A stretch of DNA of 64,000 nucleotides from an uncultured Candidatus Saccharibacteria bacterium (GTDB taxonomy: Bacteria > Patescibacteriota > Minisyncoccia > UBA6257), in NCBI GenBank assembly GCA_964479005.1, contig CAYZJA010000001.1, forward strand, positions 1-64,000, read 5' to 3'. Position 1 is the first letter of the stretch, and every line of letters begins with the position of its first letter. A model generated the notes under the pieces. It saw nothing but the letters and a program-made list of their open reading frames with translations, did no database searches and had not been told where the DNA came from. Positions 9,137-63,063 of this stretch are shown here, one piece after another. A program made the translations under genes and the position numbers.

Positions 9137-12031
9137 TTATACTCCAAGTACCCTTTTTATTTCTTCCCATGAGGTAATTCCCTGTAAAACTTTAATAACA
9201 GCGCTGTTAATTAATTTTGAAAATTTTACTTTTGTAAGATCTTTTGTTTCTGAAGGCGGTATAAGTATTTCAAATATTCCTGATTGGCCTTTATATCCGG
9301 TAAATCCACATTGGGTACAACCTTGAGCTTGGTAAATCTTTGAAGGCTTCTTATATTCTGGGAAATATTTCAAAGATGGCTTAATAAATTTAGACATTTC
9401 CGATGGAATTTTTATTTCTTTTTTACAATGAGGGCAAAGGCAACGGATTAATCGTTGCGCAATAACAGTGTTAATGGCAGGCATCAATTCTTTTGAAGGA
9501 ATTTCTAAACTCTGTAAACGTGATAAAACGCCTAAAGCGTCATTTGTATGAATAGTGGACAGAACCAAATGTCCTGTTGTAGACGCCTGCCAGACTAATT
9601 TAGCTGTTTCTTTGTCCCTAATTTCTCCAATTAGGAAAATGTTAGGGTTTTGGCGAAGCAAACTGCGAAGGACTTTGGAGAAGGTATATCCTTTTTCCTC
9701 ATTAACTTGAGTTTGCATAATTCCAGACAAGCGATATTCAATAGGATCTTCAACAGTAATCACTTTTACATCTGGCTTGGCAAGTTTTTTAAGTATTGTA
9801 AATAAAGTTGTGGTTTTTCCCGAAGAAGTAGGTCCGGCAGCTAAAATTAATCCGACTTTTTTTTCTAATACTTTTTCTATTTCTTCTTCCTGTTTCTTTA
9901 AAAATCCCAAGTTTTCTAAATTTAATAAAGATTCTTCCCCGCCCAAGATTCTTAAGGAGGCGCTTTCTCCATATCCGCCTGGAATTATTGAGAGCCTGAG
10001 GTCAAAAGATTTATCAGGAAGAATAAGCCGGAATCTTCCTTCTTGAATTATCTGTGTTTCCTCTGTTTTTAAACCGCTGAGGGCTTTTAATTCATTGATT
10101 AATTTAGGGTGTTCGTTGATATCAAAAGAAACTAATTTATGGAGCACTCCGTCAATTCTTTCCCTAATTTCACTGTTTTTTTCTTCTGGTTCAAAGTGGA
10201 CATCTGTAGCTCGTGATTTTAATGCAGTAGCTAAAATAATGGCAATTTGTCTTTCAGAAGATTTATCTTTTAGTAATGGAGAAATTGATTTATTTTTTTG
10301 AAGCAATTTTTCTATTTTCTTCTCTTCTTTGCTGCTTACTTTTACGCCTCGAGTCAAAACTTGAGAAAACAATTCTTTATATAATTCCTGGATATAGGAA
10401 ATATCACCTGCCACTCTTATAACTTCTTCCAAAGAAGTAATCCCTTCAATAGTTTTTAATAAACCGTCATGAAAAAGAGGCACCATTCCTTCGTCAATGG
10501 CTTTTGATCTTATTTCATTTTGGTCAGCGTCGGATCTGATTGTTTTAATAATTCTTGGACTTATATTAAAGTATTCAAAAATTCCAATCTGGCTTTTATA
10601 TCCCAACCAATGACATTTTGCGCAACCTTTTGATTTATAAAGATAGGGAATATCTTTTGGTATTTTTACTTTGCTTTTTGGAGAAAGAATACTAAAAGCC
10701 TCAATTAATCTTTCTTCCATTTCAGAAGTTGGTTTGTATTTTTCTTTGCAATCAGGACAGAGGCGTCGAATTAATCTTTGCGCCACGACTAATTTAAGCG
10801 CATTTGGAAGCATTTGGGCGTCAGCGCCTAATTCAACCAGTCTGGCAATAGTGCCGCTGGCTTCATTGGTATGGAGTGTAGAAAAAACTAAATGCCCGGT
10901 TAAAGCAGCTTGTATAGCGGTTTTTACTGTTTCTTCATCTCTCATTTCGCCAATCATAAGGACATCAGGATCTTGCCGGAGAATTGATTTTAATCCATTA
11001 GCAAAACCATATTTTTTTGATGTCTGAGTTTGGTTTACACCAACAAGCCGATATTCAATTGGATCTTCAATCGTGATAATTTTTACTCCCGGGGAAATCT
11101 TCTTTTTTAAAAAAGCGTATAAAGTAGTTGTTTTTCCCGAGCCTGTAGGTCCTGTGATTAAAATCATTCCATTTGGCGCTGATAAAGAATGGTTAAAAAC
11201 ATCTATACTTTTTTGTCCAATACCCAAATCTTTTAAACCAAAAGCGGCTCGTTTGGGGTTTAAGAGCCTAAATACTAAAAATTCTCCATGAGGACCTGGC
11301 AAGCTGGAAGCGCGAACATCAATAAAATTTTTATTATTTTGGATAGTAAATCTGCCATTTTGGGAAACATTTTCAATATTTAATTTTAAGCCAGACAAAA
11401 GCTTTAATCTTTGGTTAATGCCGCGGTGTTTCTTTTTTTCTATTTCAGAAACATCATATAAGACACCGTCCACACGAAAACGAACAAGAGCGCAGTCTTC
11501 CTGCGGTTCAATATGAATGTCAGAGGCGTCTATTTCAACAGCTGATTTTAAAATAAGAGAGACCAATAATGTGACTTCTTCTGTGGGAAGGGGTAAAAGT
11601 TCTTGATGAAGATCGGAAAATGCTATGGATTTAGCGCTAGTTACATCTATAAAATTTGACAATTCTTTTTGATGCTCATGGACAAAAGCATAATTTTTCC
11701 ATGCCCAATTAAGGCTTTCCTCAGTAACAACAAAAACGGCAACCTTATATCTTTCTTTTTTAATTTCTTCAATTGTTTTTATTGTTTCAGTATTAAAAGG
11801 GTCTAAAACAGCTAATTTAATTTGATTTCCTATTTTTTGGAAAGCAATAATATTAGTTTTTCTTGCTTTTTCTTCTGGAATTATAGAAAGAGCGCTTGTT
11901 TCAATTGGCGCTTTTCTTAAGTCAACATAAAGAAAATTGTGTTTTTCAGCCAGCCTCTGCGCTTCTCTTTCTTTTGATTCTTGCCAAAGAGCTTTAATTT
12001 TTTCCTCTCTTTTTTTGGCGAAGTCATTCAT
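9137..12031 (-). CDS. pilB: Type IV pilus/T2SS assembly ATPase (GspE/PilB family), complete intragenic tandem duplication with two full ATPase modules
   Basis: GspE_N-like N-terminus. Module 1: Walker A GPTGSGKTT, Walker B DPDVLMIGEMRD, His box TGHLVFSTLHTN, tetracysteine CPDC...CAKC. Module 2: GPTSSGKTT, NPNIFLIGEIRD, TGHLVLSTIHTN, CPHC...CTQC. Confidence 0.85.
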   Translation of the reverse strand: MNDFAKKREEKIKALWQESKEREAQRLAEKHNFLYVDLRKAPIETSALSIIPEEKARKTNIIAFQKIGNQIKLAVLDPFNTETIKTIEEIKKERYKVAVFVVTEESLNWAWKNYAFVHEHQKELSNFIDVTSAKSIAFSDLHQELLPLPTEEVTLLVSLILKSAVEIDASDIHIEPQEDCALVRFRVDGVLYDVSEIEKKKHRGINQRLKLLSGLKLNIENVSQNGRFTIQNNKNFIDVRASSLPGPHGEFLVFRLLNPKRAAFGLKDLGIGQKSIDVFNHSLSAPNGMILITGPTGSGKTTTLYAFLKKKISPGVKIITIEDPIEYRLVGVNQTQTSKKYGFANGLKSILRQDPDVLMIGEMRDEETVKTAIQAALTGHLVFSTLHTNEASGTIARLVELGADAQMLPNALKLVVAQRLIRRLCPDCKEKYKPTSEMEERLIEAFSILSPKSKVKIPKDIPYLYKSKGCAKCHWLGYKSQIGIFEYFNISPRIIKTIRSDADQNEIRSKAIDEGMVPLFHDGLLKTIEGITSLEEVIRVAGDISYIQELYKELFSQVLTRGVKVSSKEEKKIEKLLQKNKSISPLLKDKSSERQIAIILATALKSRATDVHFEPEEKNSEIRERIDGVLHKLVSFDINEHPKLINELKALSGLKTEETQIIQEGRFRLILPDKSFDLRLSIIPGGYGESASLRILGGEESLLNLENLGFLKKQEEEIEKVLEKKVGLILAAGPTSSGKTTTLFTILKKLAKPDVKVITVEDPIEYRLSGIMQTQVNEEKGYTFSKVLRSLLRQNPNIFLIGEIRDKETAKLVWQASTTGHLVLSTIHTNDALGVLSRLQSLEIPSKELMPAINTVIAQRLIRCLCPHCKKEIKIPSEMSKFIKPSLKYFPEYKKPSKIYQAQGCTQCGFTGYKGQSGIFEILIPPSETKDLTKVKFSKLINSAVIKVLQGITSWEEIKRVLGV

Positions 12032-26609: not shown

Positions 26610-26645
26610 GTTTTATAAAAAGATTAATTGTTTAAGATATTTTAG

Positions 26646-27023
26646 TGGAGAAGGTGGGAGTTGAACCCACGTCTAAAAAGAATTTTTTAAATAATTCTAC
26701 GAGTGTAGTTCATTCTTTGTATCTCTTAAGAAAAGAAAGAATGAACAGACTTTTCTTAAAATTCTCCGAAAATAGTTCAATTGATTTTTGGTCGGAAAAG
26801 CCAGAAACCAATCTATCTCGAGGTTTATATCCTTTGGGGCTATCGAGAATCATCCCAAAGAATTTCCCTTAAAAAGGAATGGCTTAGCCTAAACGATTAA
26901 GCATAGGCATAAGCAGGAGTTTGATTGGCATTTATTGATGCCGCCTTGATTTTTATTGAGGGTACAAGACATCCTCAACTCGCTTATTTAAAAACTCTCT
27001 TTTTATCGAATCCCGTCATCCCC
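26646..27023 (-). ncRNA. ssrA: tmRNA (SsrA), standard one-piece form; predicted tag ANQTPAYAYA
   Basis: 5' end GGGGAUGACGGGAUUCGA... 3' end ...GACGUGGGUUCAACUCCCACCUUCUCCA (T-arm plus acceptor, CCA not encoded) closely matches the E. coli tmRNA 3' end. Internal reading frame GCC AAU CAA ACU CCU GCU UAU GCC UAU GCU UAA. Adjacent to smpB. Confidence 0.8.
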
Positions 27024-27543: not shown

Positions 27544-30444
27544 ATGGAAAAGACTTTAGAGTTTATTCAAAAAGAAAAAGAGGTTTTGGAATTTTGGGAG
27601 AAAAATAAGATTTTTGAGAAATCAATAGAACAAAGGCCAAAAACCAAATCTTATGTTTTTTTTGATGGCCCTCCTTTTGCGACGGGCTCACCTCACTACG
27701 GCCATATTCTTGCTTCTTTAAATAAGGATGTTGTGCCTCGTTATTGGACGATGAAAGGATTTCGTGTGGAACGGCGCTGGGGTTGGGATTGCCATGGTTT
27801 GCCAGTTGAAAATTTAATTGAGCAGGAATTAGGTTTAAAAAACAAAAAAGACATTGAATCCATTGGTATAGAAAAATTCAATCAAGCTTGCAAAGACAGT
27901 GTTTTACGCTATGTTGATGAATGGAAAAAAATTATTCCCCGAATTGGCCGTTGGGTTAATATGGATCATCCTTATAAAACCATGGATTTTGATTATATGG
28001 AGTCTATTTGGTGGGCGTTTGAGCAGTTATGGAATAAAGGATTAATTTATAAGGACTATAAGAGCATGCATATTTGCCCTCGTTGCGGGACAACTCTTTC
28101 TAATTTTGAAGTCACTCAGGGGTATAAAGATGTTGAGGATTTAACTGTCACAATTAAATTTAAGTTAAAAGACAGAGAAAATACTTTTGTTTTAGCTTGG
28201 ACAACTACTCCCTGGACTTTACTAGGAAATGTGGCTTTAGCAGTAGGAAAAGATATTGGTTATGTAAAGATACAAATTAAAAATGAATTTTATGTTTTAG
28301 CCAAAGATAGGTTAAAAATTATTAAGGATGAGTATAAAATTATTGAAGAAATGAAAGGCAAAGATTTGGTTGGATTAGAATATGAGCCCTTGTTTGATTA
28401 TTTTTCAAAAAAAGACGATTTAAAAAACAAAGAAAATGGGTGGAAGATATATGATGCTGATTTTGTTTCTACAGAAGAAGGAACTGGAATTGTTCATATT
28501 GCTCCGGCTTTTGGCGAAGACGATTTAAAGCTTGGATATTTGAAGAATCTTCCTTTTGTTCAGCATGTTGATGAAGGTGGTTGTTTTATTAACGAAGTTA
28601 CAGAATGGGCTGGAGAAGAGGTAAAACCAAAAGATGATATTTCTAAAATAGACAGGAAAATTGTTAGATGGTTAGAGCAGAAAAATAAATTATTATTTCA
28701 GGAAAAAATTATCCATAGCTATCCTTTTTGCTGGAGATGCGATACACCTCTTTTAAATTATGCTACGTCTTCATGGTTTGTAAAAGTTACCGCTATAAAA
28801 GATAAAATTATAAAAAATAACGAGAAAATAAATTGGGTTCCTGAACATATAAAGCGCGGCCGTTTTGGCAAATGGCTGGAAGATATAAGAGATTGGTCAA
28901 TTTCCCGTTCTCGTTATTGGGGAACGCCTTTGCCAATTTGGCAATGTAATCGTGGTGAAAATGATAAAGTGAGTTCTTGTGATAATATTAAAGTTTTTGG
29001 TTCAGTTAAGGAGTTGGAAGAATTAAGCAATAAAAAAATAAAAAACCTTCATAGACCATACATTGATAAAATTGTCTTCAAATGCGAAAAATGCGGCGGT
29101 TTAATGAAAAGAATTCCAGAAGTCTTTGATTGTTGGTTTGAATCTGGTTTAATGCCCTATGCTCAGGTTCATTATCCTTTTGAGAATAAGGAATCGTTTG
29201 AAAAGAATTTTCCAGCTCAATTTGTCGCTGAAGGTATAGATCAAACAAGAGGATGGTTTTATACTTTAATGGTTCTGTCCACAGCTTTATTTGATAAACC
29301 GGCTTTTCTTAACAATATTGTTAATGGCATTATTTTAGCTGAGGATGGCCAAAAAATGAGCAAGCGCTTAAAAAACTATCCCGAGCCAATGCAAATTATT
29401 GATAAATATGGCGCCGATGCGATGCGTTTTTATCTTTTAAGCAGCCCGGCGATGAAAGCTGATGATTTGCGTTTTTCTGAAAATGGAGTTGATGAAGTGT
29501 TAAAAAAGGTTTTAATAATTTTTTGGAATGTTCATACATTCTATAAATTATATGCAGAAGAAAGCGTGGAATTAGATATTAATTCTGTTGGTAATATTTT
29601 GGATAAATGGGTTTTGTCTAAGCTAGGCTCTTTAAACGAAGAGGTTAGTAAGGGAATGGATAAATATGATTTATTAAAAGCAGTAAGGCCCATAGAAAGA
29701 TTTATTAATGGTCTTTCAACATGGTATTTAAGGAGATCCAGGCAGAGGTTTAAAAATAGCAAAGAGAAAAAAGAAGCGTCACAAGTTTTGAAATATGTTT
29801 TATTTAATTTAAGTAAAATAATAGCTCCATTTACGCCATTTTTTAGCGAACAAATTTATCAAAGTTTAAGAGATAAAAAAGACCCAGAGTCAGTGCATCT
29901 TTGTGATTACCCTGAGATTGATAAAGAATTAATAGATAAAACTTTAGAAGAAGATATGGAGAAAATTCGGGTAATTACTTCATTGGCTCTCGCAGAGAGA
30001 GCTTCCGTAAGCATAAAAGTGAGGCAGCCATTAAATGAATTAAGAATTAAGAATTATGAATTAAAAGGTAAAGAAGAATTACTGCAGCTGATTAAAGATG
30101 AAGTGAATGTCAAACAAGTTGTTTTTGATAATAAATTAGAAAAGGAAGTTAAAATAGATACTGAAATTACGCCAGAGCTTAGAGAAGAAGGTATAATCCG
30201 TAATTGTTTTAGGCAGATTCAGATTATTCGCCAAAAATCCAAATTATTCCCCTCCGATAAAATAATTATTTGTTTTCAAGGCGAAAGTTCAATAATAGAA
30301 TTGTTAAAAAAGAATGAGAAACAAATAAAAGAAGGGTTACGGATAGAAAAAATTATTTGGGATAAAATTGAAGATTTTGATTTTAAAGAAGAGATAATCT
30401 TAGATAGTAGGAAAATAAATATCAGTTTAGAAAAGACTAATTAA
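27544..30444 (+). CDS. ileS: Isoleucyl-tRNA synthetase
   Basis: HIGH-type motif PHYGHILAS, KMSKS motif KMSKRLKN, CP1 editing region, Zn-finger cysteines. Confidence 0.95.
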   Translation: MEKTLEFIQKEKEVLEFWEKNKIFEKSIEQRPKTKSYVFFDGPPFATGSPHYGHILASLNKDVVPRYWTMKGFRVERRWGWDCHGLPVENLIEQELGLKNKKDIESIGIEKFNQACKDSVLRYVDEWKKIIPRIGRWVNMDHPYKTMDFDYMESIWWAFEQLWNKGLIYKDYKSMHICPRCGTTLSNFEVTQGYKDVEDLTVTIKFKLKDRENTFVLAWTTTPWTLLGNVALAVGKDIGYVKIQIKNEFYVLAKDRLKIIKDEYKIIEEMKGKDLVGLEYEPLFDYFSKKDDLKNKENGWKIYDADFVSTEEGTGIVHIAPAFGEDDLKLGYLKNLPFVQHVDEGGCFINEVTEWAGEEVKPKDDISKIDRKIVRWLEQKNKLLFQEKIIHSYPFCWRCDTPLLNYATSSWFVKVTAIKDKIIKNNEKINWVPEHIKRGRFGKWLEDIRDWSISRSRYWGTPLPIWQCNRGENDKVSSCDNIKVFGSVKELEELSNKKIKNLHRPYIDKIVFKCEKCGGLMKRIPEVFDCWFESGLMPYAQVHYPFENKESFEKNFPAQFVAEGIDQTRGWFYTLMVLSTALFDKPAFLNNIVNGIILAEDGQKMSKRLKNYPEPMQIIDKYGADAMRFYLLSSPAMKADDLRFSENGVDEVLKKVLIIFWNVHTFYKLYAEESVELDINSVGNILDKWVLSKLGSLNEEVSKGMDKYDLLKAVRPIERFINGLSTWYLRRSRQRFKNSKEKKEASQVLKYVLFNLSKIIAPFTPFFSEQIYQSLRDKKDPESVHLCDYPEIDKELIDKTLEEDMEKIRVITSLALAERASVSIKVRQPLNELRIKNYELKGKEELLQLIKDEVNVKQVVFDNKLEKEVKIDTEITPELREEGIIRNCFRQIQIIRQKSKLFPSDKIIICFQGESSIIELLKKNEKQIKEGLRIEKIIWDKIEDFDFKEEIILDSRKINISLEKTN

Positions 30445-30490
30445 ATTCTTGCTCTTAAGGGCTCTTTGTGTTAATCTTTTAAATCAAAAC

Positions 30491-30530
30491 AATAACTAAC
30501 AACTAACAGCTAACAATTTAACAGTTTAGC
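30491..30530 (+). promoter_or_regulatory. (A/C)TAACAR heptad repeat block including the 19-mer AACAACTAACAGCTAACAA, 26-44 nt upstream of rpmF
   Basis: The exact reverse complement of the 19-mer lies at 52574-52592, the same distance upstream of nrdD. A related ATAACAA x3 block lies upstream of rpsU (49245-49274). Confidence 0.45.
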
Positions 30531-30541
30531 AATTTATTATC

Positions 30542-34539: not shown

Positions 34540-34688
34540 AATTACACTTAGGTGTAGTGGTAAAGGCGAGGAGAAATTGTTTCAAAAACACGCTAATCGC
34601 TATAGTTTTTTTCAACAACCTCTTCTCGCCTTTTCAATAGACAAATTTTTCCGCTTTTTTATGCTATTTGTTAATTGTTATTTGTATT

Positions 34689-47958: not shown

Positions 47959-49252
47959 AAGAAAATTTTTTCAAACGCTTCGCGGAATGAAAGATATCTT
48001 GGCAAAAGATTGGCTTTATTATGATTATATTTTATCTAATGCTAAAAAGATTTTCGAATTTTACGGTTTTCAAAGAATAGAAACTCCCATATTAGAAAAA
48101 GCCGAATTATTTACCAAAGGAATAGGTAAAAAAACAGATATTGTAGGCAAAGAGATGTATATTTTGAGAGCCAAAGAAAATAAGGAATTATTGGCTCTTC
48201 GGCCAGAAGGAACAGCTTCAATAGTAAGGGCATATATAGAAAAAGGGATGTTTAATTTGCCTCAGCCAGTCAAGCTTTATCATTTTGGTCCTTTCTTTCG
48301 CCATGAAAAACCACAAGCCGGCCGTTACCGTCAATTCTATCAATTAGGAGCGGAAATAATTGGGGAAGGTTCTCCAGCCACTGATGTAGAAATAATTATT
48401 GCTTCAAAAGTTTTTTTAGAAAGCTTGGGATTTAAGCAAAAGAATATTTGTTTATCTCTTAATAGTATTGGTTGTTCTGAATGTAGGCCTGTCTATATAA
48501 AAGAATTAAAAAAATATTATAGAAAATATATTAAGCAAATCTGCGCTGATTGCCGAAGGCGCATAAGAGAAAATCCTTTAAGGGTTTTAGATTGTAAAAA
48601 TGAGAAATGTTTATCTATTAAAAATGGCGCTCCAACTTTTTTAGATTACCTTTGTTTAGAATGTCATAGCCACTTTAAAGATATTTTAGAATTATTGGAT
48701 TATTTAGGCATTTCTTACATACTGGACAAAACATTAGTCCGGGGGTTTGATTATTACACAAGAACTGTTTTTGAATTTTCTCTTGGCAGCGAAATAAAAA
48801 GCATTGCTTTAGCTGGTGGTGGAAGATATGATAAATTGGTAAAATTTTTAGGCGGAACATATAAACCGGCTGTTGGCGTTGCTTTTGGCGTTGAAAGATT
48901 GATAAATGAGTTGATAAAAAAAGGCAAAGAATTAGTTTTGCCAAAACCAAAAATATTTTTGGTGCAAATAGGAGATGCGGCAAAGAGGCAATCTTTCAAG
49001 CTTTTAGAGCAATTTCGTAAAGAAAATATTTTTCTTGGGGAGAATTTAGGAAAAGAGAGTTTAAGGGCTCAATTAACAGCTGCCAATAAATTAAATGTAG
49101 ACTATGTTCTTATACTTGGACAGGAAGAGGTTTTAAATGGTATGATAATTTTGAAAGATATGGATTCAGGGCTGCAAGAATTAATTCCTCTGGAAAAGAT
49201 AATCAATGAAGTTAAAAAGCGATTAAAGAAGCAGAAAACAAAGAACAAATAA
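47948..49252 (+). CDS. hisS: Histidyl-tRNA synthetase
   Basis: Class II motifs (ALRPEGTAS, FRHEKPQAGRYRQF, GGGRYD) and a C-terminal anticodon-binding domain. Confidence 0.9.
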   Translation: MVYKRKFFQTLRGMKDILAKDWLYYDYILSNAKKIFEFYGFQRIETPILEKAELFTKGIGKKTDIVGKEMYILRAKENKELLALRPEGTASIVRAYIEKGMFNLPQPVKLYHFGPFFRHEKPQAGRYRQFYQLGAEIIGEGSPATDVEIIIASKVFLESLGFKQKNICLSLNSIGCSECRPVYIKELKKYYRKYIKQICADCRRRIRENPLRVLDCKNEKCLSIKNGAPTFLDYLCLECHSHFKDILELLDYLGISYILDKTLVRGFDYYTRTVFEFSLGSEIKSIALAGGGRYDKLVKFLGGTYKPAVGVAFGVERLINELIKKGKELVLPKPKIFLVQIGDAAKRQSFKLLEQFRKENIFLGENLGKESLRAQLTAANKLNVDYVLILGQEEVLNGMIILKDMDSGLQELIPLEKIINEVKKRLKKQKTKNK

Positions 49253-49279
49253 CAAATAACAAATAACAATTTGTAAGAT

Positions 49280-52544: not shown

Positions 52545-52592
52545 AATCAAGAACCAAATAACAATTAACATTTTTGTTAGCTGTTAGTTGTT
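52545..52592 (+). promoter_or_regulatory. ATAACAAT/TAACA block plus the inverted 19-mer TTGTTAGCTGTTAGTTGTT, 26-44 nt upstream of the nrdD start
   Basis: Exact reverse complement of 30498-30516. Confidence 0.45.
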
Positions 52593-52617
52593 CATTCTTA
52601 ATTTATATTTTATTTGT

Positions 52618-59277: not shown

Positions 59278-59469
59278 ATGTCACGAGTTTGCTCAATTTG
59301 CGGAAAAAGCTATCAGAATGCCATTAAATACAAAAAAGTTCATTCAGCTTATAACCCAACTTCCCGGCATCGTCAGATGCCTAATTTGCAATGGTTTAGA
59401 ATGCCAGACGGCAAAAGAGTAAAGGCTTGCACTAAATGCCGCAAACGCCTTTCCAAAACAATCTCTTAA
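59278..59469 (+). CDS. rpmB: 50S ribosomal protein L28
   Basis: MSRVCSICGKSYQNAIKYKKVHSAYNPTSRHRQMPNLQ... L28 pattern. Confidence 0.8.
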   Translation: MSRVCSICGKSYQNAIKYKKVHSAYNPTSRHRQMPNLQWFRMPDGKRVKACTKCRKRLSKTIS

Positions 59470-59730: not shown

Positions 59731-59807
59731 CGGGGTGTGGCCTAGTGGTTTAGGGCGCTCGCATGGGGTGCGAGAGATCTTCGCAGGTTCGAGTCCCGCC
59801 AGCCCGA
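59731..59807 (+). tRNA. tRNA-Pro (anticodon GGG) candidate
   Basis: Perfect anticodon stem CUCGC/GCGAG with loop AUGGGGU (U33, GGG, G37). T-loop GGTTCGAGTCC. C1-G72 and A73 are Pro identity elements. D-arm GCCU/GGGC. Irregularities: an 8-nt variable region, one mismatch each in the T-stem and acceptor stem, and CCA not encoded. Confidence 0.55.
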
Positions 59808-60386
59808 CAAAACAACAAATACTTCTTTACTTCTTTTCCGCGTTGCTTTGGGTCTGAACATTTTAAAGAATTTAAAAAGCGAAGATACTTTTTTAGCTAA
59901 AAAATGAACATCATTACTTTCAAAGGCTTTACAAACAAAAGAGCCTTCTTTTTTTAATAAAGGGGGAATAAAAGAAAAAGCTTTTTTGATTAATTCAAGA
60001 GAGCGTTCGCTATCAACATCTTTAATTCCAGAAGTTGCTGGAGCAAGATCAGATATAATCACATTGAATTTATCTGGAAGATTATTTTTTTTAAGCAAAT
60101 TTTGAATTTTCTCAACTTTTAGCTTAAAAATATCTTTTTGAAGGAAAATAGCTTTGGTAGAAACAGTAATTGGCTTTAAATCTACTCCCACAACTTTTCC
60201 ATTGGGTTGAATAACTTTTTGGGCGTAAAGTAACCAAGAACCTGGGAAACAACCAAGGTCCAAAACTAAGTCACCAGGTTTAAAAATATGGAATCTTTCG
60301 TCAATTTCTTTTAGTTTATAAACTGAACGGGCAGGATAGCCCTCTTTTTTTGCTTTTTTGAAATAATGGTCTTGGGATTTATACAT
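59742..60386 (-). CDS. rlmE: 23S rRNA (uridine-2'-O)-methyltransferase RlmE/FtsJ
   Basis: SAM motif VLDLGCFPGSWLLYA; K-D-K-E catalytic residues pattern. The annotated 3' end reads through the tRNA-Pro on the opposite strand. Confidence 0.8.
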   Translation of the reverse strand: MYKSQDHYFKKAKKEGYPARSVYKLKEIDERFHIFKPGDLVLDLGCFPGSWLLYAQKVIQPNGKVVGVDLKPITVSTKAIFLQKDIFKLKVEKIQNLLKKNNLPDKFNVIISDLAPATSGIKDVDSERSLELIKKAFSFIPPLLKKEGSFVCKAFESNDVHFLAKKVSSLFKFFKMFRPKATRKRSKEVFVVLSGWRDSNLRRSLAPHASALNH

Positions 60387-60474: not shown

Positions 60475-63063
60475 ATGAAGAGAATGTGGCATAGTCTTTC
60501 TTGGCAGGAAGCATTGCAAATATTAGATTCAGACTTTAAACAAGGTTTGTCTAAGGAAGAAATAAAGATTCGCCAAAAAGAATTTGGAAAAAACAAGCTT
60601 CCTGAAGAAAAACCATTATCAAAATTAAAAATATATTTGGAGCAGTTTAATAGCCCCTTTGTTTATATTCTAATAGTTGCTGGAATTGTTACTTTATTTT
60701 TAAGAGAATTTGCTGATACTATTGTTATTTGGGCGGCAGTGTTTATGGATACAACCGTTGGGTTTATTCAGGAAAACAGAACTTCAAACGCTTTAAAAGA
60801 ATTAAAAAAGATTATTAAACAAGAATCTGAAGTTCTCAGGAATGGAAATTTAAAAATTATTAATTCTGAAGAATTGATTCCTGGCGATATTATCATTTTA
60901 AATCCTGGAGATAAAATTCCTGCAGACGCGAGAATAATTGAGTCCCAGGGCCTAAAAGTGAATGAGATGACTTTGACTGGAGAATGGTTGCCATCAGAAA
61001 AGATTTTCAGAACATTATTAGGTCAGACGCATTTGATGGACAGGGACAATATGGTTTATATGGGATGTATTATAGAAGCTGGAAAAGGCAAGGCTATTGT
61101 GGTAAATACCGGCATATATACAGAAATTGGAAAGATTGCCAAAATGGTAAAAGAGGCGCCAGAAAGAAAAACTCCTTATCAAAAGAAATTAGCAAGTTTT
61201 TCAACTATGATAGGAATAGGCATTACTTTTGTTTGTGCCTTTATTTTTTTTGAGGGATTAATAAAGGGAAAAGAATTTGTAGAAATGTTTACTACTTCTG
61301 TTGCTGTGGCTGTTTCTGCTATACCCGAAGGATTACCTGTGGCAATAACAGTAATTTTAGCTTTAGGAATGCAGAAAATTTTAAAAAAGAAAGGATTAAT
61401 AAGAAAATTGGCTTCAGCAGAAACCCTGGGAAATACCAGTATAATATGCACTGATAAAACAGGTACTTTGACTAAAGGAAAGATGAAAGTTAGTGAGATA
61501 ATTGGTGATAAATCTTTGGTTCTTAAATCAGCTGTTTTAACATCAGAAGCGTTTATTGAAAATCCAGATGATATTATGAAAAAATGGATTCTAAGAGGTA
61601 GGCCCACAGACAGGGCTTTATTAGAAGCTGGAATTGAAAATGGATTGATTAATATGAAGAAAAAGATGGAAGAAGATAAATTATCTGAGGTTCCTTTTAA
61701 CCCAATAAATAAATTTGCTGCTGCTTTTTATAAAGAATCAGGGGAAATGAATTTGTATATTTGCGGCGCTCCAGAAAGAATTTTTGAAAGAAGTAATTTA
61801 AATGATGAACAAAAAAGAAGATTAGAAGAAAAATTAAAAGGATTAACTAGTAAAGGATTGCGTGTACTTGCTACAGGCTGCAGGAAAGTTGAAAAAAGTG
61901 AGAATATAACTTATGAAATTAAAGGATTAGAAGTGCTTTGTTATGATTTTATTTTTACTGGTTTTATTGCTTTAAATGATCCAATTCGTAAAGAGGTAAA
62001 ACAAGCAATAAGAGTTTGCCAAAAAGCTGGTATGAGACCTATTATAGTTACTGGAGACCATAAATTAACAGCTAAGGCAGTGGCAGAAGAATTAGGTTTT
62101 GAAATAACAAAAGAAAATATTTTAGAAGGAATGGATTTGGATAAATTGTCTAATAAAGAATTTGAAGCAATTCTGGATAAAATACAGATTTATTCTAGAG
62201 TGGAACCTAAGCATAAGATGAGAATTATTGATGCTTGGCAGGATAGAGGTGAAGTTGTGGCAATGACCGGAGATGGAATAAACGACGCGCCAGCTTTGAA
62301 AAAAGCGGATATTGGGATAGCCTTAGGTTCTGGAACAGCTGTGGCAAAAGAAAGTTCAGATTTAATTTTATTAAATGATAGTTTTTCTATCATTGTTAAA
62401 GCCATAGAAGAAGGAAGGGTTATTATTGATAATATTAGGAAGGTTATTACATATTTACTTTCAGATAGTTTCACAGAAGTAATTTTAATAGGGACGAGTA
62501 TCTTTATTGGAGCTCCTTTACCAATAATCGCCGTACAGATATTATGGGTTAATTTAATTGAAGATGGTTTGCCTGATATTGCTTTGGCTTTTGAACCCAA
62601 AGAAGAGGGAATAATGGAACAAAAAGCCCAAGGCCATGAAGTTCATTTATTGACCAAAGAAATGAAATTCATAATTGTGATTATTGGAGTGATTACTGAT
62701 TTAATGCTTTTAGGATTATTCTTTTGGTTATGGAAACTAAATTTTGATATTACATATATCAGAACAATGATTTTTGCCTGCCTTTCAATTGATTCAATTT
62801 TTTATGTTTTTTGTTGTAAAAGCCTGCGTAAGAATTTATGGCAGATTAATATTTTTTCCAATAAACTTTTATTAGTAGCAGCAGTTTTAGGAATAATAAT
62901 GTTGGTAGCTGCTGTTTATGTTCCAATGCTTCAAAGTCTTTTGAAAACAGTACCTTTGGGAATTTATGATTGGTTGATTGTATTGACCTTGGGAATAATT
63001 GAGTTAATTGCTATTGAAGCGGCAAAGCATTATTTTATTGTCCGCCACCAAACCGAAGATTAA
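60475..63063 (+). CDS. P-type cation-transporting ATPase (P2-type, Ca2+/Mg2+-like)
   Basis: Phosphorylation site ICTDKTGTLT, TGD, hinge MTGDGINDAPALKKADIGIALG; about 10 TM helices. Confidence 0.9.
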   Translation: MKRMWHSLSWQEALQILDSDFKQGLSKEEIKIRQKEFGKNKLPEEKPLSKLKIYLEQFNSPFVYILIVAGIVTLFLREFADTIVIWAAVFMDTTVGFIQENRTSNALKELKKIIKQESEVLRNGNLKIINSEELIPGDIIILNPGDKIPADARIIESQGLKVNEMTLTGEWLPSEKIFRTLLGQTHLMDRDNMVYMGCIIEAGKGKAIVVNTGIYTEIGKIAKMVKEAPERKTPYQKKLASFSTMIGIGITFVCAFIFFEGLIKGKEFVEMFTTSVAVAVSAIPEGLPVAITVILALGMQKILKKKGLIRKLASAETLGNTSIICTDKTGTLTKGKMKVSEIIGDKSLVLKSAVLTSEAFIENPDDIMKKWILRGRPTDRALLEAGIENGLINMKKKMEEDKLSEVPFNPINKFAAAFYKESGEMNLYICGAPERIFERSNLNDEQKRRLEEKLKGLTSKGLRVLATGCRKVEKSENITYEIKGLEVLCYDFIFTGFIALNDPIRKEVKQAIRVCQKAGMRPIIVTGDHKLTAKAVAEELGFEITKENILEGMDLDKLSNKEFEAILDKIQIYSRVEPKHKMRIIDAWQDRGEVVAMTGDGINDAPALKKADIGIALGSGTAVAKESSDLILLNDSFSIIVKAIEEGRVIIDNIRKVITYLLSDSFTEVILIGTSIFIGAPLPIIAVQILWVNLIEDGLPDIALAFEPKEEGIMEQKAQGHEVHLLTKEMKFIIVIIGVITDLMLLGLFFWLWKLNFDITYIRTMIFACLSIDSIFYVFCCKSLRKNLWQINIFSNKLLLVAAVLGIIMLVAAVYVPMLQSLLKTVPLGIYDWLIVLTLGIIELIAIEAAKHYFIVRHQTED

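Follow-up and report, generated by a model that had tools for sequence, protein, structure and literature searches.

The first 64,000 nucleotides of contig CAYZJA010000001.1 (assembly GCA_964479005.1, forward strand; this whole stretch is hereafter called the window), from an uncultured Candidatus Saccharibacteria bacterium, contain tandem heptanucleotide arrays rich in TAACA in front of several genes, two of which, rpmF and nrdD, are preceded by the same exact 19-mer. These blocks are members of a widespread family of heptanucleotide simple repeats found in spacers that precede start codons and lack a Shine-Dalgarno (SD) sequence, and the 19-mer is a generic fragment of the repeat (C/A/T)TAACA(A/G); its reading as the binding site of a regulator is not supported. 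Taken together, the arrays are interpreted here, with moderate confidence, as a heptanucleotide repeat made by slippage, which is tolerated and perhaps useful as a spacer for SD-independent initiation.

The 19-mer AACAACTAACAGCTAACAA occurs exactly at 30498-30516 (+) and as its exact reverse complement at 52574-52592, and both copies occupy positions -44 to -26 from the ATG of the downstream gene, rpmF (30542) and nrdD (52618, a start with which the Joint Genome Institute gene call concurs). This sequence match confirms the observation on which the original prediction was built, namely one word in opposite orientations 26-44 nt before both ATGs. With up to three mismatches allowed, the window contains five matches against 0.04 expected, the inexact ones being an overlapping register within the rpmF block and the rpsU block, and TAACARNTAACA occurs seven times against 0.13 expected. 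The TAACA pentamer itself is rarer in the window than base composition predicts (71 and 85 occurrences versus about 116 and 148), and the TAACA clusters are therefore not a composition effect. The 7-nt periodicity noted beforehand is borne out by Tandem Repeats Finder (TRF), which reports period 7 both for the unit AACTAAC (3.3 copies at 30494-30516) and for the unit AACAAAT (4.7 copies at 49237-49269), so that the window arrays are tandem 7-nt direct repeats of at least two copies. Within the blocks, successive TAACA motifs are spaced by 7, 7 and 8 nt.

Two arrays are A/C-sense with respect to the downstream gene. The one upstream of rpmF (30489..30524, +) reads ACAATAA CTAACAA CTAACAG CTAACAA TTTAACAG; it holds the 19-mer, ends 17 nt 5' of the ATG and carries TAA in all three forward frames and TAG (via CTA) in all three reverse frames. 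The one upstream of rpsU (ATG 49280) lies at 49237..49269 (+), where TRF finds the 4.7 copies of AACAAAT, that is, ATAACAA x3; it runs across the stop of hisS (TAA, 49250-49252) to 10 nt 5' of the rpsU ATG. That ATAACAA x3 precedes rpsU is as predicted, whereas the accompanying claim that it encodes the C-terminus of hisS applies to the last few A-rich codons and the stop only. Upstream of nrdD, an A/C-type half-array (AAATAACAATTAACA, 52556-52570, +) lies just 3' of the ftsZ stop and forms the left arm of an imperfect inverted repeat, the right arm of which is the reverse-complement copy of the 19-mer (52574-52592, minus strand; TTGTTAGCTGTTAGTTGTT on the plus strand), which is G/T-sense with respect to nrdD. 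Also G/T-sense is the array TTTGTTAA TTGTTAT TTGTATT (34667-34688, +), which runs directly into the ATG of trmD (34689). Finally, about 0.9 kb before the window start, on the same contig (locus L142, 8401-8432), the G/T-sense array TTGTTAA TTGTTAT TTGTTAG lies 11 nt 5' of the ATG of an extracytoplasmic function (ECF) sigma factor gene, and has the exact 18-mer TTGTTAATTGTTATTTGT in common with the trmD array.

The range of this genome that was covered comprises the window and about 19 kb of flanking sequence on its contig, some 83 kb in all. It contains six same-orientation TAACA/TGTTA clusters, all six of them intergenic and five within 45 nt of a start codon. These five start-proximal arrays, two A/C-sense (rpmF, rpsU) and three G/T-sense (nrdD, trmD, ECF sigma), differ in the distance from array end to ATG (7-25 nt). 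The equal distance of the two 19-mers from their ATGs is most likely a coincidence, because the distance is not the same for the other arrays or in relatives. Several properties follow from the unit itself. Since 7 is not a multiple of 3, three CTAACAA units place TAA in every frame and TAG in every opposite frame, and arrays are excluded from open reading frames (ORFs) because stops fall in all of them. Furthermore, on the A/C strand of the unit G is almost absent and the start codons ATG, GTG and TTG do not occur, while the G/T strand has TTG.

Recurrence, placement and strand across phyla

A search for the exact 19-mer in one genome per species, covering 185,579 species, found it in at least 119 genome stretches of species representatives. 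By chance, about 4 hits would be expected in these 596 Gb (both strands, uniform bases), or at most about 15 if every genome were AT-rich. According to the record titles, about half of the matches listed come from Cyanobacteria, many of them heterocystous and filamentous, and about a quarter from Bacteroidota; the others include termite-gut Alphaproteobacteria, Clostridia (Neglectibacter), Patescibacteria (Levybacteria, Moranbacteria), Acidobacteriota, Chloroflexota, Gemmatimonadota, Nitrospira, Omnitrophota, Vibrio mytili and Methylococcales. The species of the window is not among the matches listed. Most of the listed matches are embedded in longer CTAACAA/CTAACAG tandem arrays of 3-42 units (median 5), with CTGACAA, CCAACAA and CTAATAA as unit variants, and the flanks are unrelated across the 129 foreign matches (122 arrays). 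Heptad simple repeats built on many different units abound in the genomes that host these loci: in 868 kb of foreign loci, TRF detected 300 arrays of period 7 and no more than 49 of any other period. Any array with the unit order CTAACAA-CTAACAG-CTAACAA contains the 19-mer, and the match between the two window copies is therefore statistically unsurprising. In the unit logo of the foreign arrays, the ascertainment bias is too strong to show selected positions. Viral contigs gave no match to the 19-mer and one match to a permuted heptad control, which makes them uninformative as a specificity control.

Relative to genes, the foreign arrays are strongly biased in strand. Among the matches listed, to which all counts in this paragraph refer, 116 of 120 distinct arrays lie outside ORFs. 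Between co-directional genes, 49 arrays have the A/C strand as coding strand and 13 the G/T strand (binomial p = 5e-6), and of the arrays located at most 60 nt upstream of a start, 37 are A/C-sense and 5 G/T-sense (p = 4e-7). For co-directional pairs, the median distance is 25 nt to the downstream start versus 69 nt to the upstream stop, and 34 arrays are nearer to the start versus 19 nearer to the stop (p = 0.053). As many as 33 arrays end at most 20 nt short of an ORF start (ORFs of 80 codons or more), nine of them within 1 nt of the start codon, as in ..CTAACAACTAACAA directly followed by ATG, and none of these 33 is accompanied by an SD-like motif (GGAG, GAGG or AGGA). For 25 of 114 arrays, an inverted G/T-type partner lies upstream, within 120 nt; for 6 it lies downstream.

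Orientation and placement of this kind point to a constraint on the mRNA and not on the duplex, and the cross-phylum preference for the A/C sense at starts without an SD sequence suggests selection at the level of mRNA or translation. The original prediction had favoured a protein-binding site over an RNA-level signal, and here the cross-phylum strand bias argues for the opposite choice. As far as could be found, the recurrence of one heptad unit, sense-oriented, at SD-less starts across phyla is a real and undescribed regularity; the feature in the window, by itself, is an ordinary, fast-evolving simple repeat.

Gene starts, spacers and turnover among relatives

The nearest named relatives of RpmF are found in metagenome-assembled genomes of Candidatus Pacebacteria/Paceibacterota and Nealsonbacteria, and the host is therefore a candidate-phyla (Patescibacteria) bacterium. 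Its genome is small and AT-rich, and the window has a G+C content of about 32%. An SD-like 4-mer (GGAG, GAGG, AGGA or AAGG) is present at -20 to -4 in only 6 of 51 window genes, and G drops to 2-14% over the 20 nt upstream of the starts; Shine-Dalgarno sequences are thus essentially out of regular use in this genome, which agrees with the earlier statement that the start codons behind the blocks lack them. At many window genes, a TAnnnT hexamer resembling a -10 box lies only 0-10 nt before the ATG, as in TATAATT-ATG at 59278 and TAAAAT-N8-ATG at 60475, with further examples at the starts 51311 and 21375; judging from these motifs, leaderless or very-short-leader mRNAs may be widespread in this genome.

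Spacers in the window show a periodicity of their own. Across its 28 intergenic regions (2,435 nt), trinucleotide self-matches peak at lag 7 (z = 7.3) and lag 8 (z = 4.8), with no other lag comparably enriched, whereas coding DNA shows self-similarity at lags 6 and 9 only. When the four TAACA spacers are removed, lags 7 and 8 persist (z = 4.1 and 4.3, respectively), so that a general process appears to give spacers a period of about 7 nt, the TAACA arrays being its most regular outcome. Further period-7 tracts in the window are made of TAATTAG before ftsA and of TAGTAAT before rpoC.

Orthologous loci at graded evolutionary distances, obtained by exact-protein look-ups and one metagenome scan and given here as L numbers, show that the arrays are gained and lost as strains and species diverge. 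The rpmF array is identical in seven contigs (L001-L005, L007, L008) from several samples. Yet where RpmF is 100% identical, the array may be replaced by other A/T-rich low-complexity sequence (L006, L010) or by the variant TTAACAA TTAATAA CTAACAA TTAACAG (L009), and it is absent at RpmF identities of 95% (L156, L157), 82% (L158) and 76% (L159, L160). The flanks of the rpmF spacer (a small hairpin after ileS; ..TTATTATCATG) remain alignable in relatives. Likewise, the TGTTA array upstream of trmD is absent in L156-L159. The arrays of nrdD and rpsU are retained in the nearest relatives only. Upstream of nrdD, L151 keeps the inverted arrangement in diverged form and nothing array-like is seen in L150 and L145; upstream of rpsU, the TAACA heptads are kept in diverged form in L138 and are missing in L153, L150 and L149, the array itself being identical in eight contigs from several samples. 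New arrays appear elsewhere: in L150 the spacer between nrdD and nrdG contains CTAACAA CTAACAA CTAATAA CTAATAA and, behind them, heptads of the TGTTATA type, and in L153 a TGTTA pair lies upstream of clpB. Placement is therefore specific to strain or species, with related genomes lacking an array at the orthologous site.

The region upstream of nrdD in L146 is unlike that of the window, consisting of a hairpin element followed by TTTAACAATTTAACACTTTAGCAATTTATTAT in A/C orientation, 30 of 31 positions of which agree with the sequence next to rpmF in the window. In coordinates, the 31 nt before the rpmF ATG (TAACAATTTAACAGTTTAGCAATTTATTAT, 30510-30541) recur with one mismatch before the nrdD ATG of L146 (about 1095-1129). 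On this comparison, a start-proximal segment has apparently moved between genes, standing before rpmF in the window and before nrdD in L146. Within the window, the rpmF-proximal module TTTAGCAATTTATTAT has no further copies above chance. The nrdD gene varies internally as well: it bears an insert of in-frame length of about 1.29 kb near residue 373 in L146 (2248-3542) and one of about 1.21 kb, also of in-frame length and at a different site near residue 606, in L151 (2377-3584), and no insert in the window. These inserts could be inteins, or else introns that carry homing endonucleases.

The hairpin element mentioned above is a dispersed element of about 80 nt, with a conserved centre ..TTGTTTCAAAAACACGCTAATCGCTATAGTTTTTTTCAACAAC.., found at 34556-34645 in the window, about 1.7 kb past the window end on the same contig (L139, 12530-12619), and in L146 (994-1083), L150 (260-349) and L153 (1195-1284). 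Its long outer stem differs in sequence between copies with pairing kept (-26 to -35 kcal/mol), and it follows a KH-domain gene (khpA-like) in the window and rpoC in relatives. A TAACA/TGTTA heptad block lies within about 35 nt 3' of it in four of the five copies. The element has no Rfam match, and a permissive scan of the trmD spacer returned only chance-level miRNA-like hairpin hits; it could be terminator-like, REP-like (a repetitive extragenic palindromic sequence) or a small RNA.

As for the remaining content of the window, its genes include infC-rpmI-rplT, transfer-messenger RNA (tmRNA), smpB, ileS, rpmF-nusB-rnc-smc, the KH-domain gene, trmD, rpoB-rpoC and clpB, as well as hisS-rpsU-ybeY-ftsA-ftsZ-nrdD-nrdG and more. 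A scan of the whole window with Rfam 15 at gathering score identified tmRNA and one tRNA, and no match at the array loci. The tmRNA gene (26643-27023, -), with the tag peptide ANQTPAYAYA, lies between infC and smpB, and several spurious ORFs are listed across it. A tRNA-Pro(GGG) gene (59731-59808, +) overlaps the 3' end of an FtsJ-like methyltransferase ORF (59742-60386, -) by about 67 nt. At 1086-1304, within a PG_binding_1-domain gene (703-2763), a 75-nt unit is repeated three times (90% matches), which amounts to a tandem repeat at the protein level. Two perfect palindromes built from TAACA/TGTTA pentamers lie within genes: TAACAGCGCTGTTA at 9196-9209, in the minus-strand gene 9137-12031, and TTAACAATATTGTTAA at 29309-29324, in ileS.

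Origin and role of the arrays

Replication slippage is the obvious candidate process by which heptad arrays would be generated, and the arrays would then persist where they are harmless or helpful. In the A/C sense, the resulting mRNA spacer would be open and poor in G, without SD-like sequence or start codons and with UAA in every frame, and such a spacer would suit the type of SD-independent initiation that is ascribed to S1 or standby binding. The case for a function in leaders comes mainly from the cross-phylum strand bias. The fallback given in the original prediction, an A/C-rich unstructured block acting at the level of translation, stands in part: the genes concerned are SD-poor, the A/C arrays of rpmF and rpsU are predicted to be single-stranded, and the A/C-sense bias extends across phyla, but this support is correlative and three of the five arrays of this genome (nrdD, trmD, ECF sigma) are G/T-sense.

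Several points weigh against a spacer with a use in initiation. The G/T sense of three arrays out of five makes the functional claim weak in this genome, where the arrays may amount to hardly more than spacer filler that is tolerated, and a translational role in this organism would be a correlative reading of the sequence. Folding energies of the leaders equal those of shuffled controls (z of about 0), so that being unstructured is a property of base composition and not specific to the repeat. The foreign arrays were ascertained with a single 19-mer, their counts are counts among the matches listed, and the genes at these loci are simple ORF calls; the orientation bias across phyla could also reflect only selection against a harmful orientation. 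Finally, no copy-number polymorphism was found among the eight to nine near-identical contigs of the rpmF and rpsU loci, and ongoing slippage is thus not directly observed.

For these reasons, pure neutrality is a serious, if somewhat unlikely, rival. According to it, the arrays are functionless slippage products, their placement reflects tolerance outside ORFs, and their orientation reflects purifying selection against G/T leaders that bear TTG. The quick gain and loss of arrays among close relatives, the use of both orientations in this genome, the general self-similarity of intergenic DNA at 7-8 nt, the dominance of heptads among the simple repeats of foreign loci and the shuffle-like folding energies are all in its favour. 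It accounts less well for arrays that, among the matches listed, favour the neighbourhood of the downstream start over that of the upstream stop (34:19) and end within 20 nt of SD-less starts in 33 cases (within 1 nt in nine of them), and slippage alone does not predict that one unit should occur far above chance in many phyla. Even inert arrays would be of use, as a marker of how rapidly intergenic DNA turns over in reduced genomes.

At the other extreme, it has been considered that (CTAACAR)n is a cross-phylum leader module that replaces the Shine-Dalgarno sequence, and that its A/C-rich RNA is engaged by a conserved part of the initiation machinery such as S1 or the 30S platform; this would be why the module spread, or arose more than once, in lineages poor in SD motifs (Cyanobacteria, Bacteroidota, Patescibacteria and others). 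This is unlikely; if true, array length and orientation would set translation rates. The arrays also provide a candidate sequence, amenable to testing, for how ribosomes locate starts without an SD sequence.

It is decidedly improbable that a dedicated RNA-binding regulator (S1-, Csp- or CsrA-like) targets the repeat RNA within a post-transcriptional network. Such a network has been proposed for the TAACTGA repeats (PMC4679880), and it would be in line with the sense-strand bias and the ribosome-binding position seen across phyla and with the ribosomal protein genes that follow two of the window arrays. However, the downstream genes (rpmF, rpsU, trmD, nrdD, ECF sigma) form an incoherent set, the arrays are not conserved among relatives and take both orientations in this genome, and no candidate binding protein came up.

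Very unlikely, too, is an RNA hairpin formed by the inverted arrays between ftsZ and nrdD and acting as a terminator, processing site or stabiliser, with pairs of G/T and A/C arrays being structural elsewhere. The nrdD spacer folds at -12.5 kcal/mol (z = -1.8; hairpin at 52551-52593), the inverted arrangement is kept in L151, a pair of A/C and G/T arrays precedes nrdG in L150, and among the matches listed inverted G/T partners are more frequent upstream of foreign arrays than downstream (25/114 versus 6). Nevertheless, a fold as good or better is reached by 11 of 200 shuffles, the A/U-rich stem is not directly followed by a U-tract, the L151 substitutions read as non-compensatory, and the rpmF, rpsU and trmD arrays have no partner. 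An intrinsic terminator in particular, with a G+C-rich stem and a U-tract, is not what these sequences contain, and the terminator scan showed no such site at either 19-mer locus.

The original prediction itself, an operator at which a DNA-binding regulator would overlap the promoters of rpmF, nrdD and rpsU, is exceedingly doubtful, and so is its variant with TTAACA/TTGTTA as reiterated -35-like hexamers. It drew on the exact 19-mer equidistant from two start codons; moreover, TTAACA and TTGTTA resemble TTGACA, and CTGTTA-N17-TATATT can be drawn upstream of nrdD. An operator is unsupported because the arrays are unconserved at their genes and shift between genes. At orthologous sites, conservation fails even at 100% or 95% RpmF identity, and the comparison of the regions upstream of rpmF, nrdD and rpsU in relatives, which had been proposed as a check, reveals absent or different arrays, together with arrays before other genes. 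The five arrays lie at differing distances from their ATGs (7-25 nt from the array end), and many foreign arrays abut the ATG, leaving no room for a promoter. A direct-repeat spacing of 7 bp would put successive sites on different faces of the helix, the strong strand bias across phyla argues for a constraint on RNA, and a 19-mer identical in at least 119 unrelated genomes cannot be the operator of one regulator. As for an overlap with promoter elements, with TTAACA/TTGTTA taken as -35 and a -10 placed 16-18 nt downstream, no geometry, judged by eye, held across the five arrays, and scans for consensus promoters and terminators at both 19-mer loci gave nothing above shuffles on the relevant (+) strand. 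A false lead is thereby removed, in that a shared promoter-proximal 19-mer resembles an operator and yet is a by-product of simple-repeat composition.

Least credible of all are copies or remnants of a mobile or dispersed element, MITE-like (a miniature inverted-repeat transposable element) or REP-like, since the exact 18- and 19-mers common to distant spacers, the module of about 31 nt upstream of rpmF in the window and of nrdD in L146, and the frequent position of arrays behind the 80-nt hairpin element are outweighed by copies that agree no further than the heptads or the 19-mer and have neither flanks in common nor terminal inverted repeats or target duplications, by relatives that carry other low-complexity sequence of similar length with no clean insertion or excision, and by the lack of 19-mer matches in viral contigs, which argues against a phage-borne element.

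Comparison with known systems

Among the phase-variable simple repeats of promoters and leaders, 7-bp repeats lie upstream of the hmw genes of Haemophilus. Phase-variable AGAT repeats are found upstream of uspA2 in Moraxella, as summarised in PMC4679880. As far as that summary goes, such repeats resemble the arrays described here in lying between promoter and start codon, where copy number could tune expression. The arrays of the window differ in being short and imperfect, in preceding housekeeping genes and in showing no copy-number polymorphism in eight to nine near-identical metagenomic contigs, and are therefore not obviously hypervariable contingency repeats. The identical arrays in the seven rpmF contigs and the eight rpsU contigs speak against a phase-variable contingency repeat.

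With regard to leaders, A/C-rich translation enhancers include the CAA-rich omega leader of tobacco mosaic virus and CA repeats. In Bacteroidia, the parts of two studies that bear on this point describe how weak mRNA structure and the upstream bases modulate SD-independent initiation (PMC6847099, PMC7797042). To the extent covered there, initiation of this type and the host studied here have in common the lack of SD motifs and leaders that are A-rich, G-poor and weakly structured. The arrays occupy the ribosome-binding position, whereas the Bacteroidia leaders, as described in those parts, and the A/C enhancers are not tandem heptads.

Closer in form are the short tandemly repeated repetitive (STRR) sequences, the heptanucleotide repeats CCCCAGT, TTGGTCA and CAACAGT that Mazel et al. 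reportedly found in cyanobacteria in 1990. STRR sequences were defined for cyanobacteria, and their definition includes neither start-proximal placement nor an orientation rule. Their units differ from the present one: the nearest is STRR3, which in register reads TCAACAG versus CTAACAG, so that CAACAGT is two positions off, and the canonical forms are AACAACT and AACAGCT here versus AACAGTC, ACTGGGG and AATGACC for STRR. While STRR sequences are cyanobacterial, the CTAACAR unit spans many phyla. The arrays of the window do not belong to STRR, as their unit is not among the three defined and their host is related to Paceibacteria and is not a heterocystous cyanobacterium. Comparable, too, are the 'long simple sequence repeats' described by Mrazek et al. 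2007 (summary in PMC4679880). Within the bounds of that summary, STRR and long simple repeats are like the arrays in being tandem heptanucleotides that are mostly intergenic and for which slippage has been proposed as the origin.

The most extensive likeness is to the TAACTGA heptamer repeats, reported from Cand. Maribeggiatoa, other Beggiatoaceae, 15 Cyanobacteria and 5 Bacteroidetes (MacGregor 2015; PMC4679880). Both are tandem heptads, TAACTGA occurring in sets of 2-6 and in longer ones in some Cyanobacteria and Bacteroidetes. Both are intergenic, mostly forward and a few nucleotides from SD-less starts, carry stops in every forward frame and have no predicted RNA structure. Their placement is strain-specific and includes sites before ribosomal protein genes, and their main host phyla are alike (all PMC4679880). 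On the other hand, the unit described here is CTAACAA/CTAACAG (with ATAACAA and TTAACAA in the window) and has only TAAC in common with TAACTGA, reverse orientation is as common as forward in this genome, and the host is a candidate-phyla bacterium, a group outside that study (PMC4679880). A one-base neighbour of TAACTGA in BOGUAY, TAACAGA, forms no direct repeats, and the present unit is not mentioned in the same paper (PMC4679880). Full-text literature searches with all rotations and the complement of the unit returned no description of it in prokaryotes, the older STRR papers being outside their scope. Start-proximal heptad repeats, described once before for TAACTGA, are thus extended to a second unit and to candidate-phyla bacteria. 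The TAACTGA repeats are the closest known system, and the arrays described here represent a sister unit to them and not a strict member.

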